Of a stretch of DNA of 9,824 nt, positions 448 through 7,473 are shown piece after piece. Source of the stretch: a virus (Duplodnaviria; Heunggongvirae; Uroviricota; Caudoviricetes). Location of the stretch: IMG/VR virus record IMGVR_UViG_2619619133_000002, positions 1 to 9,824 of that record. One strand, 5' to 3'. The position numbers were made by a program, and so were the translations under genes. The notes beneath the pieces were generated by a model. It was not told where the DNA came from, did not search any database, and was given only the letters and a program-made list of their open reading frames with translations. The first letter of the stretch is position 1; each line of letters starts with the position of its first letter.

Positions 448-1024
448 CATCCGGCGCTGTGCTGGTATCTGTTGCCGTCACCGCGTCAATGTAATCCAGC
501 ACAGCGTTAAGGCGGGTTGTTTCTGCCTGCGTCAGCTTCCGTCCGGCCTGTAATTTCAGTTGAATCAGACTGATGGAGGCCATTGCAGTATCAATCAGCG
601 ACTGGCGCTGTGCTTCTGCTGCATCTACTGCTGCGCCGTGCTGTGCCTCGGTATCTGTCACCCATTTCTCACCATTCCATTCATCGTATGGCGTTAACGG
701 GGCGATAGTGGTTGTATTTTCAGGATAATCACCCGGAGCTGTGATTTCTTTCGATTCTCCTGTTTCGGTGCTATAGACGATTTCACCGCGATGATCTGGC
801 ACATATTCCCATGAATTTAAATCTACAGAGCGACAGATTGCATAACCAGCTTTATGTGTACCTGGTGCATCCAAACAAGAACATGCCGGGATACCGACGC
901 CGACAGCGAGATATTCAGTTGATGTAGAAATATATTCACGCGTTTCACCATCATAATTATAAATGATAATGTCTCCCGTTTTTATGGCAATGAGTTCACT
1001 ATTTAATACAGCTTTATTCATCAT
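419..1024 (-). CDS. tfa: tail fibre assembly protein (lambda Tfa / Caudo_TAP-like)
   Basis: 201 aa with Tfa-like blocks ([41 protein letters not shown]). The start codon overlaps the tail-fibre stop in an ATGA arrangement, suggesting translational coupling. Confidence 0.85.
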
Positions 1025-1806
1025 GCGGCCCTCACAATATAATTAAAGGCGATGTTACGTGGACGATTTTCATTTGCTGTTGGAACAACATTTGCCGCCG
1101 AGAAGTGAACATCTTGTCGGATTTTTCGGTCATTAGCGTATGTCATAGATACGTTGATGTTATTCCGGACTGAGGTACCTCCGTAAAAAGCACCACTCAC
1201 ACTTTGAACATCAACAATTGCATTTATTTCGCTGTTTACGCGCAACTGACCAAAACCGCCAGTAATGTTTCGAATAGCATCTCCTTGCGCTGAAAGCAGA
1301 GTTCGCCCACTATCCACACCACGTTCATCATCCCAGCCACGAATAAACTCACCGCGTAAATCTGGCAATTTATTTGTCGGATAAACTTTTGCCAGTTCCG
1401 GATACTCTTCGGCAGAAAAAGGCGCACCATTGCATTTCAGCCAGCCTGTTGGCGGAGTGGCTGAAGGCCACGGAACAGGCACACCAACGGGTAATGCCGA
1501 ACCTTCTCCCAAACCAAGGTTTTCGAGAGCCGTTTTCACGGTGCCATCCGATTTGATATCGCCAAACGGATTCTTGCGGCTTAACAGCAGCGCACGAAGC
1601 GCGGTAAGCAGCTGGTCGTGTTGCGCCTTCTCCAGACTAGCACCGGATGCCTCCACCACGCTGCAAAGCTCCTCCTGCAACATGTCAAAGTAGTCATCAT
1701 CCAGATCGGTAGCAGGCGTGCCAGTCTGGGGGTTACCACGGGTAAAACCGTTTTTACCCGCGCCGAACTTATCCTTCTGCGCGGTTTTCGTGTCTATACG
1801 ATGCAT
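1021..1806 (-). CDS. stf: short side tail fibre protein with a tail-collar-like C-terminal domain; N-terminal constant part joined to the C-terminal variable part at an invertase crossover site
   Basis: ATG at 1806 is preceded by GGAG and an in-frame TAA. The C-terminal region ([23 protein letters not shown]...[22 protein letters not shown]) looks like the phage tail collar / tail fibre tip family. Codons 93-101 (ALENLGLGE) are encoded by the putative crossover site. Confidence 0.75.
1504..1529. other. putative serine-invertase (Pin/Gin/Cin/Hin-type) crossover site embedded in the tail fibre gene
   Basis: 26-bp imperfect palindrome TTCTCCCAAACC-AA-GGTTTTCGAGAG; 9 of 12 half-site positions are symmetric. 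The AAACC-AA-GGTTT core resembles hix/gix/cix sites as recalled (e.g. hixL TTCTTGAAAACCAAGGTTTTTGATAA). Confidence 0.55.
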
Positions 1807-2617
1807 GGATTACTCCGGATACCGAACCGTTGAGCATCTCGATAACTTCCCGCCGCTTGTCGTAGCACGGCCCCTCAATGTTGTACCCGGCGGTGGTGAT
1901 GGCCCACATCAGTGGCTGACGTCGCGCGCCCATCCCGGTAAGCATCGTGGTATAAAGCGCATCGGTGGCGTGCTCGTGATATTCATCCACCACGGCACAG
2001 TGGGGTGATGAACCATCACCGGGGTTACCGATCAGCGGTTCAAACCGCGCGCCATCCTCCGGACGGTTCATGTTTGAGGCGTTAACCTCAATCCCGAACG
2101 CTTCCGTCAGCATGGGTGTGCGTTTACACATCAGTCGCGCCGGGCGAAAGACTTCCCACGCCTGTTTCTCTGTCGTGGCACCGGAATACACTTCCGCGCC
2201 AAACTCGTTATCACAGGCAAAACAATACAGGGCAACACCGGCAGAGATTGCCGATTTGCCGTTCTTACGGGGGATTTCGGTATACCCCTCCCTGAAGCGG
2301 CGCAGCCGGGAGCCTTTATTGACCCAGCCAAACGCACAGCAGATCACAAAGAGCTGCCACGGTTCCAGCGTGATGGGCATCCTCTTGAATGCCCACTCCC
2401 CCTTGGTGTGTGGCAACAGCTGAATAAATTTCGCGGCCCGTTCAGCCAGGTCCTTGTCGAAGCGGTAACGAAACGACTTACTTTTTTCCGCCATCAGGTC
2501 ATCAAGATGGCGCTGGCAGGCCTGAATCACAAACTGGCAGGCCACAATCTTTCCGCGCACGACATCACGGGCATACTGATTGGCAGCATTTACGTTGGGG
2601 TAAGATTTCCGGCTCAT
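1769..2617 (-). pseudogene. terL: terminase large subunit (HK97/Terminase_1-like), truncated: ATPase domain only
   Basis: Walker A-like PRKNGKS and Walker B-like AVVDEYHE are present. Only 282 aa are encoded, against roughly 550 aa or more expected; there is no nuclease domain. The frame ends 37 nt inside the next gene. ATG overlaps the terS stop (ATGA). Confidence 0.75.
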
Positions 2618-3108
2618 GATTCGATGATTTTCAGAAACGGGTTAGTGGCTTTCTTCTGCCCCGCCAGGCCAATCAGACGCTGGCGGCTGCTGGGGTCGAG
2701 TCCGAGCATTGCCCCCGTGCTGCTCATCTCGGACTCCTGTTCTTTCTTGGCGGTCAGCTCCGGATTTTTGACCATGCCACCCATTGCACCGGTGATGGTG
2801 TTGCCCTGTCTGGCAATATTTTTCACGGCACGCCGCCAGAACTCGTAGGCCACGCACCACCGCTCAAGCACCGCGAGGTCAGTCACGCACAGCAGGCCCT
2901 GACCGCAGAGTTCTTTGGTTGTCAGTTGCCACATGATCGTGGCGAGAGGGAGATCTTCTTCAGCGAACCACTCCGGTGGCTCAACACCTTTGATGGGCGT
3001 AAAAACAGGTTCATCTTTATTCAGGGCTCGCTTGCCGGGGTTTCCGGCCAGCGCCTTGCGCGCCGTTGGCTTGGGGCGACGCCCGGACCCCCCCGCCGTT
3101 CCAGCCAT
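2614..3108 (-). CDS. terS: terminase small subunit, P27 family
   Basis: N-terminal [26 protein letters not shown] is typical of P27-family TerS. ATG at 3108 has GGAG about 11 nt upstream; the ORF track starts at an in-frame GTG at 3117. It overlaps the terL start. Confidence 0.8.
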
Positions 3109-3143
3109 ATGCGGCACTCCTGGTTAAATTTCATTTTTCGCGG

Positions 3144-3210
3144 GTATAAAAAAACGAGGGGGCGGGCAGTCCGGAAGACGTCAGGTCACAGGGATGTGCC
3201 CCGCCCCTCC
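3144..3210 (-). terminator. GC-rich imperfect palindrome followed by a T7 run on the minus strand: putative intrinsic terminator and/or cos-region element between HNH and terS
   Basis: Arms CGAGGGGGCGGGCA (3155-3168) and TGCCCCGCCCCTCC (3197-3210) pair with two bulges. The loop contains the GACGTC palindrome. The minus strand reads stem then TTTTTTTA. Confidence 0.45.
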
Positions 3211-3233
3211 CCTCAGACAGTTGAGAGTTATTA

Positions 3234-3584
3234 TCACTTTAACCGTTCACGGACCGTCTTCGCCTTATGACACGGCCAACACAGACTCTGCAGATTACAG
3301 TCGGCATCAGTGCCGCCATGCGCTTTAGGGATGATGTGGTCAACGGTTTTCGCCTCACGCACCACACCGGCACGCAGACATAACTGACATAAACCTTTGT
3401 CACGCTTCAGCACACGCGCGCGGATAGCGTCCCACTTCGAACCATAACCGCGCTGATGACGGGACTGACCTGGCTTGTATTGCTTCCAGCCTTCGCTTTT
3501 GTGGCTTTCGCAGTAGCCTGACGGGTCTGTGGTTGTAGAGCGGCAGCCGCGAACACGGCAGGCTTTTGGGGTTCGTGGTGGCAT
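3234..3584 (-). CDS. phage HNH endonuclease (terminase-associated)
   Basis: 116 aa with CxxC...H...N...H...CxxCH signature (CRVRGC, CESH, DHIIPKAHGG, CWPCH). Position immediately upstream of terS is typical of HK97-like packaging modules. ATG has GGAG upstream. Confidence 0.85.
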   Translation of the reverse strand: MPPRTPKACRVRGCRSTTTDPSGYCESHKSEGWKQYKPGQSRHQRGYGSKWDAIRARVLKRDKGLCQLCLRAGVVREAKTVDHIIPKAHGGTDADCNLQSLCWPCHKAKTVRERLK

Positions 3585-3593
3585 TGGTAAGCT

Positions 3594-3628
3594 CCAATAA
3601 AAAAGCCACCATCGATTGCTAGTGGCTT
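3594..3628 (-). terminator. putative Rho-independent terminator downstream of the moron ORF
   Basis: 7-bp stem AAGCCAC / GTGGCTT (3603-3609 and 3622-3628) with a 12-nt loop, followed on the minus strand by TTTTTTATT. Confidence 0.45.
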
Positions 3629-3654
3629 AGCATCTACTAATGTGAAGAGTAGGT

Positions 3655-4413
3655 TTATTTTTTCTTCTTATTTAACTTATCTAAATTGACGGGATCTTTC
3701 CCTGTGGCAGCTAAACACCAAAAAGAATAACTCTTTTGCATGACATAGGTTCTAATTCTCTCTAATGTTTCATTATATTTTTTCTCAACAACCTGTATCG
3801 CATGTTCAAATAAATTAATCATATCAACATGCTCGTCCTCGACACCAATCATGCTCAGTTGTTTTCTATCTGTCACTGCTTGATAAAATGTTTTCCCATT
3901 TTTCCTTATTAGTAACAATGAAGTTTCTGCTGACTCATAGTCTTGGTTGCCGCTATGTGCTGCAAAATTATGCCTGTAGTTAATAATACAGTCATGCAAC
4001 CCAAAATATTCAGAATCAAGCCAATCACGCTCCATCTTTAACTTTCTCCCTTTAGCTTCAGAGAAAGCTTTACCATAAAACGTTAGGCTTGCCACAAATA
4101 ACGCTCTAATTTCACTTGATAAATCTAGATCAAGTATATTCCCGTATAACTTGCCATCTGTCCTTAATTCGTTTCTCCCTGCCAGTTCATTAGCTATTTG
4201 GTACCACTCTTTAGCACTTTTTAAGTCCCTATGAATTAGTGACAGTGAAGATGCTCTATCGGCAATACGCCCACTCAATTTTATGCGATCTACAATTTCA
4301 TTATTGAATGTATAAACCGCTTTAAATTCCCCCGTTTCGGAATCAATATAATATTCAACATCTAACCCTTCATATGATTCACACCCGGGACCTTCTAATT
4401 TTTTTCTTTTCAT
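3655..4413 (-). CDS. hypothetical protein in an AT-rich moron; contains an Rx5H motif (possible HEPN-like RNase)
   Basis: Long ORF in a sharply AT-rich island between Rz and HNH. ATG at 4413 is used here; the ORF track starts at an in-frame TTG at 4437. Motif NYRHNFAAH lies at 3955-3975. No family recognised by eye. Confidence 0.55.
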   Translation of the reverse strand: MKRKKLEGPGCESYEGLDVEYYIDSETGEFKAVYTFNNEIVDRIKLSGRIADRASSLSLIHRDLKSAKEWYQIANELAGRNELRTDGKLYGNILDLDLSSEIRALFVASLTFYGKAFSEAKGRKLKMERDWLDSEYFGLHDCIINYRHNFAAHSGNQDYESAETSLLLIRKNGKTFYQAVTDRKQLSMIGVEDEHVDMINLFEHAIQVVEKKYNETLERIRTYVMQKSYSFWCLAATGKDPVNLDKLNKKKK

Positions 4414-4494
4414 ATAGAATATCCATATACGTTTCAATTCTCAGTCAGCATAGTAGAAAAAAAAGATGTCCAGATCCATACATCGAAAGCAATT

Positions 4495-4959
4495 TTAGTT
4501 TTCACACTGACTAGAGATATAGTCCTGCAATGCTCTTATCTGTTTATAACTGATTTCAATTCTCTCTCTGAGGGTGAAATAATCCCGTTGAGCGGTGTCA
4601 GTAAGTCGGGGGGCGGTAGCATCATCCAGGCTGGTGGTAATGGTCGTTGATTGCACTCTCGGGCAACTAGCGGCGAGGAACAGCCGCTTAGTGCCAACAG
4701 CAACATCACGCTGAAGCTGTTCAATAGTTGCTTTAGCATTTGCAAGTTCTCCGGTGTATTTCGCATCGAGCGCAGAAACATCACGCTGGCGCTGCTGCAT
4801 CTCAGTAATGGTGGCGTTCGCCTGGCTGAGTTTTTCCTTCGCTTTATCGCGCTGTTCTTTGTAGGCGATGGCGTTATCACGATAATGATTAACAGCCCAT
4901 GATAGGCAGACGATGGTGCAGATAACCAGAGAGGACAGAATCGCAGTTACTCTACTCAT
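4495..4959 (-). CDS. Rz: i-spanin Rz
   Basis: [31 protein letters not shown]... is near-identical in pattern to lambda Rz as recalled. ATG at 4959 overlaps the end of R by 8 nt (ATGAGTAG). The ORF track's longer form begins at a TTG inside R. Confidence 0.85.
4536..4739 (-). CDS. Rz1: o-spanin Rz1 lipoprotein, embedded in the +1 frame of Rz
   Basis: [20 protein letters not shown] has a signal peptide and lipobox (LSGC). The proline-rich mature part [27 protein letters not shown] resembles lambda Rz1. Confidence 0.75.
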
Positions 4960-5434
4960 ATAGCTGAATTTCTCTGACCGTTCCGCCCGATTCTTTGAAT
5001 TTTTCAATCAGGCTGTCAACCTTATGTTCGAACTGACCATAACCAGCGCCCGGCAATGACGCCCAGATATTGCTGCAACGATCAATAGCCTGACGGATAT
5101 CGCCGCGATCAATCATCGGTAAAGCACCACGCTCTTTAATCTGCTGCAATGCCACAGCATCCTGGCTTTTTGGAGAGAAGTCTTTCAGCCCAAGCTGCTT
5201 ACGGTAAGCATCCCACCAGCGTGAAAGAAGCTGATAACGTCCTGCGGCTGTTGATTTAAGTTTCGGGTTTAGCGTGACAAGTTTGCGAGGGTGATCGGAG
5301 TAATCAGTGAACAGTTCACCTCCGACAATAACGTCATAACCGTGGTTACGTGTCGGTTGTCGCCCGTTATCCGTTCCTTCTGACCATGCCACCATATCGA
5401 GGAAAGCTTTACGCTGGGAATTTAGTACCTGCAT
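4952..5434 (-). CDS. R: endolysin, lambda R-type lytic transglycosylase
   Basis: [47 protein letters not shown]... matches lambda R as recalled along its whole length (160 aa). Confidence 0.9.
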
Positions 5435-6060: not shown

Positions 6061-7002
6061 ATGAGTACAGAAAATAAGAATAAAACCAGGCGAGTGAGAG
6101 TTGGTTTTTTCACTGGTAATGGAAGCAAAAAAGATGGCACATCTGCTGCAAAACTAGCCTTTGAGCAAATGACCACAGCAGATACTGTAACTTTTCCAAT
6201 AACTTACACAACAGACACCCCAAATCGAGGGTTAAAGTTAGTTATTCTTCAAAAAGATACCACACTGCAATGTTACTTTGGTTACGTATCGTGGAGAAGG
6301 GAATGCCTACTACCGTTCATCGAGGATGCTACAGGTAGTGAGAGAACAATTCCTTTAAATGATAAAGATTCTGTAGTTGAAAGAACATATTTTATCTATT
6401 ACTACGAAACGGACTTATTAGCTATGACCCTCAACCATATAGGGCCCAAAGTAAATGATCTGGCATTCATTTTGTATAACAAAACTGATTTAAAAAGCGT
6501 CACTTTTGAAGCCATTTGGAAACAAGAGAGCATGAAGGAACTGCTTGAGGACGGAAATATCCTACGTAGTTTCGATCTTATAGTTGCTGCTCCAAGAAAC
6601 TTTAACAAAGCTAATTATAAGATTAAAAACCCTTTAGCTAATGAAATTATTGACATGGTTGTTGGTATGGGCGGGTCGCATCTAAGATTAAATATGCGAG
6701 GTCGGATTCGCCCGAAAAAACAAGGGTTTAACTATCTAAAAACTTCTGTCACCGATGCTATTAAGGAACTACTTGAACTTTTTCCAAAAGGTTCTGGAGG
6801 TCTAAAAATTAAAAAAATTGATGTAACAGAGCCATCCAATAGAACGCCCAAAAGTCTACTTGACCAAGTATTGGTCAGTACAAAGACAATCATTGTCAAA
6901 AGCGGTTATCCATCCGATTCTGATATCAGAACGGCGATGATATCTGCTAAAATTGATAACGCGAACTATCTTGCACAGTATGAGCTCGCTAGCAGAGACT
7001 AA
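6061..7002 (+). CDS. hypothetical protein, 313 aa, soluble; first gene of the AT-rich cargo operon
   Basis: Long ORF in an AT-rich island, on the opposite strand to all flanking phage genes. ATG is preceded by an in-frame TAA. No motif or family recognised by eye. Confidence 0.6.
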   Translation: MSTENKNKTRRVRVGFFTGNGSKKDGTSAAKLAFEQMTTADTVTFPITYTTDTPNRGLKLVILQKDTTLQCYFGYVSWRRECLLPFIEDATGSERTIPLNDKDSVVERTYFIYYYETDLLAMTLNHIGPKVNDLAFILYNKTDLKSVTFEAIWKQESMKELLEDGNILRSFDLIVAAPRNFNKANYKIKNPLANEIIDMVVGMGGSHLRLNMRGRIRPKKQGFNYLKTSVTDAIKELLELFPKGSGGLKIKKIDVTEPSNRTPKSLLDQVLVSTKTIIVKSGYPSDSDIRTAMISAKIDNANYLAQYELASRD

Positions 7003-7023
7003 TAACCAAGCATGGAGGACACA

Positions 7024-7473
7024 ATGAGAGAATTAGCCACTTTTCTCTGGAAATGCGTCCTCTGGATTCTGTTGACCTATGCAGCGACAAAACTGTTTAA
7101 ACCGATGAAGCATGCTGACGTACTCACAACAGCGGGGGTGCTCTCGACTATATCAGGCATCCTGTTTGGTTTTGTTCTGGCTGCAATATCTATATTTAGT
7201 AGTGCAAACAGCGATAAGGAAGGAGCAATTAATGCCCTTAAGCAAAACAACGTGTTACCAACTCTGGTAAATAGATTACTTTCAACAGGGTTAACTCTCA
7301 TCGTCGCATGTATATTTCCATTGATAGCGATGTTTCTACCTGATGATGTTATTGTTGCGGGCAAACCTATTGATTTCCTATTCATACTGTTAGGCTTATC
7401 CTCCCTTATAATTTCGCTATATACCTTCGGAAGGTGTTGGTTAGTGTTACGAAAAATCTTCCCCCACTTGTGA
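7024..7473 (+). CDS. small integral membrane protein, 3-4 predicted TM helices; second gene of the cargo operon
   Basis: ATG at 7024 has a perfect GGAGGA 6 nt upstream; the ORF track starts at ATG 7012. Four hydrophobic stretches (FLWKCVLWILLTYAA, GVLSTISGILFGFVLAAISIF, LLSTGLTLIVACIFPLIAMFL, IDFLFILLGLSSLIISLYTF). Starts 21 nt after the upstream gene. Confidence 0.6.
   Translation: MRELATFLWKCVLWILLTYAATKLFKPMKHADVLTTAGVLSTISGILFGFVLAAISIFSSANSDKEGAINALKQNNVLPTLVNRLLSTGLTLIVACIFPLIAMFLPDDVIVAGKPIDFLFILLGLSSLIISLYTFGRCWLVLRKIFPHL

Follow-up and report, generated by a model that had tools for sequence, protein, structure and literature searches.

[quoted passage not shown] HepS is not toxic by default and represents a trigger-activated abortive-infection RNase. 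Tha, encoded in S. aureus prophages (Tha-1 and Tha-2), comprises 301 aa with a C-terminal HEPN domain carrying the motif R265NSIMH270, and has an inhibitor, Ith, in a noncontiguous operon (PMC11087260). The HepT protein of the HepT/DUF86 group (PF01934; PDB 7ae2, 5yep, 1ylm) carries an RX4HXY motif with an AMPylated tyrosine, and AbiD/AbiF (Abi_2, PF07751) are single-gene abortive-infection proteins with a HEPN motif of the R-N-x-x-A-H type. In Csx1, a β-hairpin follows directly after the HEPN motif (PMC3710099).

We analyzed a window of 9,824 nucleotides (the whole stretch of DNA under study), which belongs to an SfV/e14-like E. coli prophage. A single AT-rich gene at positions 3655..4413 (minus strand) had been proposed, in a sequence-only reading of this DNA, as a stand-alone defence or toxin gene with a HEPN-like motif. 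Compared by description, its product shares with HepS that it is a single prophage protein with an RX4-6H motif, without partner or inhibitor, encoded in a lambdoid accessory slot, and HepS served as the template for the mechanism proposed below. Unlike Tha-1 and Tha-2, the window gene has no partner, its product shows another architecture and its host is Gram-negative.

Structurally, the proteins closest to the family of the window protein (WP_001407090.1) are those of the HepT/DUF86 group. However, the family has the motif R-x5-H-S-G in place of RX4HXY and lacks the tyrosine that is AMPylated in HepT, its members do not match PF01934, and neither an adjacent MNT antitoxin gene nor any other recurrent neighbour was found, so that membership in the HepT/MntA type VII toxin–antitoxin systems was rejected. 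Further, the family members are about twice as long as HepT because of added β elements. A kinship with AbiD/AbiF, which had also been suggested, was not upheld, since 71 members compared with Pfam hit neither Abi_2 nor any other HEPN model at E ≤ 1, and PADLOC gave no match either. With Csx1-type HEPN proteins, the window protein shares the point at which a β-hairpin is inserted, right after the motif (strands within 160-185), but it has no CARF domain, CRISPR context or detectable sequence similarity to them.

The Gene, Its Product and Its Family

The coding sequence starts with an ATG at 4413, ends with a stop codon at 3655-3657 and encodes 252 aa, as derived from the ORF list, RefSeq and PHROG 8440. 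This form corresponds to WP_001407090.1, a hypothetical protein in the RefSeq annotation of an identical locus. A TTG start at 4437 (ORF 3655-4437, 260 aa) was disfavoured by RefSeq and by the N-termini of the homologues (MKRKKL / MPRKKL), which back the ATG at 4413. The residue numbers R155 and H161, previously assigned to the gene at 3655-4413, belong to this longer ORF; in the 252-aa protein the two residues are R147 and H153.

The GC content of the gene was 35.3%, compared to 56.4% in the HNH gene, 59.7% in terS and 47.6% in Rz, confirming that it is AT-rich unlike its neighbours. Among the PHROGs, the protein matched only phrog_8440, of unknown function (E = 3e-117). No Pfam, NCBIfam or PADLOC model matched the 252-aa protein or 70 relatives, namely 60 aligned and 10 distant members of the family, at E ≤ 1, and a literature search on the family returned nothing relevant. 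A resemblance to the PAP2 signature SRX5HX3D was set aside, this being a membrane phosphatase signature whose downstream D is not conserved in the family. A lipoprotein identity was likewise rejected, as the N-terminus of the 252-aa protein has no hydrophobic region.

Homologues were numerous. There were 197 matches in a collection clustered at 90% identity, and a profile search of a 50%-identity library recovered 893 clusters at E ≤ 1e-3, 458 of them at E ≤ 1e-10; among the matches listed, all members were single-domain proteins of approximately 225–260 aa. Members of the family were also present on 38 IMG/VR contigs, and the gene itself is carried by 23 of 5,426 complete E. coli genomes.

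An Invariant R-x5-H Motif in a Predicted Four-Helix Bundle

The putative HEPN catalytic motif, R147-H-N-F-A-A-H153, is encoded at 3955..3975 on the minus strand. The longer string NYRHNFAAH, from which the HEPN proposal had started, is indeed present; it spans 3955-3981, as 3955-3975 covers RHNFAAH only. A single motif had been called weak evidence from the outset; by itself it carries no weight, given that 67% of shuffled versions of the protein contain an R-x4-6-H. The R147/H153 motif nevertheless stands above chance because both residues are 100% invariant and separated by a fixed spacer of 5 residues in all 240 aligned homologues; it is the most conserved element of the family. Position 148 was H in 182, N in 52 and D in 6 of these homologues, with no other residue; in a survey of HEPN proteins, the residue after the conserved R is polar and typically N, D or H (PMC3710099).

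Two further residues of the alignment (n = 240), Y113 and H140, were also 100% invariant, and D63, W70, K115, R123, A152 and G155 were conserved in at least 98% of the sequences. In helix 2 of the predicted structure, a basic residue at position 103 (K/R, 94%) is preceded by N/D at position 100 (61%), with no clear acidic Ex3[KR]. This second acidic residue in helix 2 is an optional feature, found in many but not all HEPN families (PMC3710099).

An AlphaFold2 model of the window protein, built from a 61-sequence alignment, reached a pLDDT of 87.5 and a pTM of 0.83. The predicted topology comprises strands within residues 4-36, helix 1 (49-80), helix 2 (96-115), a non-helical insert (116-133) with the near-invariant G122 and R123, helix 3 (134-151), a β-hairpin (160-185) and helix 4 (195-225). 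The model of a second member, from Pseudomonas and 31% identical, showed the same topology with a pLDDT of 91.6. Both models place the motif at the C-terminus of helix 3: R147 falls in the last turn of this helix and H153 where the connection to helix 4 begins, and the equivalents in the Pseudomonas member are R132 and H138, with helix 3 at 119-137. The predicted arrangement is that of the four-helix up-down bundle of two α-hairpins by which HEPN domains are defined, and the insert at 116-133 lies between helices 2 and 3, where inserts are frequent in HEPN bundles (PMC3710099).

When the two models were submitted to a fold search, the top-ranked natural structures for both independently modelled members were HEPN toxins. 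Scores for the two members were 6.7 / 7.5 (rank 4) with 5yep_B, 7.0 / 7.3 (rank 5) with 1ylm_B and 7.6 / 6.6 (rank 21) with 3jrt_A, an integron-cassette HEPN protein. The entry 8xdj_A was found with one member only (6.5 / outside the top 60), as were 1wwp_B (outside the top 60 / 6.3, rank 31) and 4nqf_B (outside the top 60 / 6.1, rank 41). Since the HEPN scores overlap those of generic bundles, such as chemoreceptor ligand-binding domains, FliS and designed proteins, and since Foldseek returned nothing below E = 0.05 from the PDB, the fold search is supportive rather than decisive.

At the sequence level, the family profile had no match among PDB sequences at E ≤ 10. Profile comparison by hhalign with 120 HepT/DUF86 proteins (PF01934), gathered with a consensus sequence, gave a weak match (score 19, P = 0.02, probability 2%), compared to a score of about 12.8 and P = 0.23 in reversed-sequence controls; a consensus for DUF4145 retrieved no comparators. 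The alignment to DUF86 was collinear, with R147 placed on the catalytic R and H140 on a conserved DUF86 histidine. This result is weakly consistent with HEPN and is no proof of it.

An alternative is that the protein forms a four-helix bundle outside HEPN, in which the conserved His, Arg, Tyr and Asp serve metal, nucleotide or ligand binding, or a protein–protein interaction, and the R-x5-H is coincidental. We regard this as unlikely: R-x5-H is the family's most conserved element and is followed by H, N or D, the insert between helices 2 and 3 agrees with the published HEPN definition (PMC3710099), and HEPN toxins head the natural structures retrieved with either model. As far as prediction can tell, the modelled bundle supports the earlier HEPN-like proposal. 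The outcomes that could have spoken against it computationally, namely another fold, a motif in a non-conserved loop or homologues without the R and H, were not encountered, R and H being kept in 240/240 homologues. Against the HEPN-like assignment, no Pfam HEPN model hit the 71 members at E ≤ 1. Altogether, a HEPN fold of the 252-aa protein is probable on the strength of these models. In predicted structure and motif, the family agrees with what defines the HEPN superfamily, and we describe it as a new family of a known kind that carries no annotation.

A One-Gene Cargo Cassette between Rz and HNH

The gene is flanked upstream by the Rz spanin gene (4495..5007, minus strand; Pfam Phage_lysis, E = 2e-40), which lies on the late-operon strand, and downstream by an HNH endonuclease gene (3234..3584, minus strand; annotation and Pfam HNH, E = 1e-14), with which the packaging module starts. 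A prophage at the thrW/proA site of strain LD22-1 matched positions 3500-4600 with 100% identity. In many related prophages, this Rz–HNH slot is occupied by iss/bor, on the opposite strand. Homology to these relatives stops at about 3608, inside the stem of the terminator described below, and restarts within the 3' end of Rz, at about 4562; other phages with an HNH gene likewise lose homology inside the terminator stem, at about 3608. These breaks indicate that approximately 950 bp were exchanged as a unit. The swapped cassette, delimited by alignments with the E. coli EC28 prophage, lies at approximately 3609..4561 and includes the last ~67 nt of Rz, which is why the C-terminus of Rz differs from that of iss-carrying relatives.

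Relatives of the gene occupy accessory positions in several kinds of temperate phages. A 60%-identical copy (prophage L008) and a 50%-identical one, in a Citrobacter lambdoid prophage with a λ-type terminase, lie in the same Rz–terminase slot. Others were found in the int–xis slot of Escherichia phage 2H10 and of many IMG/VR relatives, immediately behind zot in a filamentous phage of Vibrio (inovirus), in islands antisense to early genes in Pseudomonas prophages, and in chromosomal variable regions of Burkholderia and Paraburkholderia. An immunity hot spot has been described in the slot that precedes the packaging module (PMC11364771).

The notion of an independent moron was sustained with regard to cargo status: iss/bor takes its place in the same slot, homologues sit in other accessory slots of unrelated temperate phages, and the gene is present or absent between conserved flanks with an atypical composition (35% GC vs. 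48–56% in the flanks). We thus read the locus as a cargo cassette of one gene, acquired horizontally, in the lysis–packaging hot spot of an SfV/e14-like prophage.

The Vibrio homologue mentioned above, from the V. cyclitrophicus filamentous phage PQ189351 (L016 4986-5723), is 33% identical and carries the depositor's note 'endonuclease', for which no explanatory paper was found.

Transcription with the Late Genes

A scan identified an intrinsic-terminator-like hairpin with a T-tract (-12.8 kcal/mol) just before the HNH ribosome-binding site, in agreement with the terminator reported earlier at 3594-3628. On the minus strand it consists of a stem of 9 pairs with an 8-nt loop (3628..3603), followed by TTTTTTATT to 3594 (T-tract 3594-3602). 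No other terminator-like site occurs in 3400-4700; as shuffled sequences likewise yield about one such site per region, the weight of this one derives from its position right after the stop codon and not from its existence. The spacer between the Rz stop codon and the ATG (4414..4494, minus strand; 81 bp, 32% GC) contains a weak Shine-Dalgarno sequence (GGA). The weak hairpin with a T8 run that had been noted after Rz is real and very weak: GATGT/ACATC with a 10-nt loop at 4457-4484, -3.2 kcal/mol.

The promoter that an independent unit would call for was not recovered, since a consensus scan of the minus strand of the 81-bp upstream spacer gave no sigma-70 promoter. In L008, the 60%-identical copy has a likely GTG start about 68 bp after Rz and its stop codon 19 bp before HNH, and no terminator follows it; the terminator is thus present in the window and absent there. 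Given the location on the late-operon strand, the promoter scan and the packing in L008, the gene is surely transcribed with the late genes, as far as the sequence layout tells. Expression in lysogens, which defence would require, is the weakest point of the defence reading.

These observations bear directly on an alternative in which the HEPN-like RNase is produced only from the Q-dependent late transcript and benefits the phage, through host shut-off, competition with co-infecting phages or counter-defence, without protecting the lysogen. Such a role would fit a gene that shares its strand with holin, lysozyme, Rz, HNH and terminase and that, in L008, is packed like a part of the late operon. 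It also has a parallel in phi80, where the late-strand gene of the same slot, atiEcA, encodes a Q-dependent counter-defence factor and the immunity gene lies on the opposite strand (PMC11364771).

Against this, a separate transcription unit is the usual arrangement for cargo expressed during lysogeny. The homologue forms such a unit of its own in phage 2H10 and the Pseudomonas prophages, where it runs antisense to the lytic operons or stands apart from them, and some copies lie in chromosomal regions without evident phage genes. Further, the copy in the window is intact in a prophage without head and tail genes, where a purely lytic gene would not be under selection. We therefore consider an exclusively late, phage-serving role improbable, to about the same degree as a bundle outside HEPN.

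Absence of a Recurrent Partner

HEPN toxins are commonly paired with antitoxins, as in HepT/MntA and RnlA/RnlB, and it had been suggested that a cognate antitoxin, as a small ORF or an antisense RNA, be sought in 4414-4494 and 3585-3654. These AT-rich spacers could in principle encode a small RNA. However, they held only the terminator and one 23-aa ORF (4434-4505), and they are not conserved between copies, the downstream one being reduced to 19 bp in L008. No Rfam family was detected in the window at E ≤ 1, nor were inverted or direct repeat arrays. Clustering of the neighbouring ORFs at 95 loci from 53 lineages revealed no family in more than 5 lineages, the most frequent neighbours being a UmuC-like polymerase, an integrase and an NA37 protein (each in at most 5 of the 53). 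The search thus yielded neither a plausible small ORF, nor an Rfam RNA, nor the conserved adjacent antitoxin gene or RNA that characterizes type II and III toxin–antitoxin systems. The HEPN-like gene is solitary, and we deem it very unlikely that it encodes the toxin of such a pair.

In three Pseudomonas prophage contexts (L012-L014 6766-7329), two small same-strand ORFs follow the homologue, the first of 77–81 aa and the second of 63–89 aa, in an island antisense to the surrounding genes. They did not recur in other lineages and could be lineage-specific partners.

Least probable of all is a role in lysogenic conversion or virulence like that of the Bor/Iss lipoprotein. The gene shares the iss/bor slot and the AT-rich composition typical of such cargo, but its product, which is unrelated to Bor/Iss, lacks both signal peptide and lipobox and is modelled as a soluble helical bundle, and its relatives occur in environmental Proteobacteria and a Vibrio inovirus rather than in pathogens.

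A Proposed Mechanism and Its Implications

Taking HepS as a template, two protomers would pair their R-x5-H motifs to form a metal-independent RNase site, and the enzyme would remain dormant until an infecting phage provides the activating signal. The N-terminal strands and the hairpin that directly follows the motif make up an additional β-sheet, which may act as a sensor or as an oligomerization surface. Once activated, the enzyme may cleave RNA (tRNA or bulk RNA), leading to growth arrest and abortive infection, as is the case for HepS and Tha.

That the protein is an active RNase is somewhat more likely than not, while an anti-phage role, argued by analogy with the solo HEPN systems, falls slightly short of an even chance. 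To the chain as a whole, i.e. horizontally acquired cargo encoding a cytoplasmic HEPN protein that acts as a trigger-activated RNase with an anti-phage role, we assign a probability of roughly 0.45.

A bolder version of this reading is offered only tentatively: the protein might be the founding member of a new and widespread one-gene anti-phage family of about 900 clusters at 50% identity. Its members would be solo R-x5-H RNases with a built-in β-sheet sensor, activated by a phage-derived trigger and, being switched on only by that trigger, in no need of an antitoxin. They would be spread mostly among Gamma- and Betaproteobacteria, in the cargo hot spots of lambdoid, Pseudomonas and filamentous prophages.

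By its predicted fold and invariant motif, the gene is a credible one-gene anti-phage candidate of an already known kind, as solo prophage HEPN defences are established; the family itself has no Pfam, NCBIfam or PADLOC model. If the trigger-activated defence reading is true, an unannotated family would join the solo-HEPN abortive-infection proteins, which have only recently been shown to act partner-free (HepS, Tha). The locus would also provide a tractable one-gene E. coli system in which to address the identity of the trigger and the way in which the carrier prophage avoids targeting itself. Further, it would encourage searches of the Rz–terminase (bor/iss) slot and the neighbouring Q–holin slot of SfV/e14-like prophages as hot spots of defence genes. 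Were the gene expressed only late, it would represent a phage HEPN RNase serving its own lytic programme, which is less expected.

Other Features of the Window

Within Rz, an ORF in the +1 frame (4536-4880, minus strand) encodes a lipobox-like LALSGC and corresponds to the expected embedded Rz1 o-spanin.

The large-terminase ORF of the window (1769-2617) stops after approximately 282 aa, overlapping the C-terminal portion of a tail-fibre gene (1021-1806). LD22-1 carries about 17 kb of head and tail genes between the points that are joined at window positions 1021-2617. As this segment is present in LD22-1 and missing here, a large deletion has taken place and the prophage is probably defective; the HEPN-like gene is intact despite this loss. 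No complete E. coli genome matched the terminase/tail-fibre junction in one piece.

A second AT-rich cargo island (6061-7473, plus strand; GC 0.38 and 0.41) is located between holin and Q. Its first product has 313 aa; the second, of 153 aa, is hydrophobic and has weak matches to membrane proteins. Both were assigned only to PHROGs of unknown function (7651 and 8552), and Pfam, PADLOC and NCBIfam gave no assignment. An ompC-like porin occupies this holin–Q slot in L002 and Kiwa occupies it in L008, where KwaA/KwaB Pfam matches were obtained at 2759-4172. Given these occupants, the 313-aa and 153-aa proteins are a candidate two-gene defence system. As L008 is also the prophage with the 60%-identical copy of the HEPN-like gene, both cargo slots of this phage type can hold defence genes.
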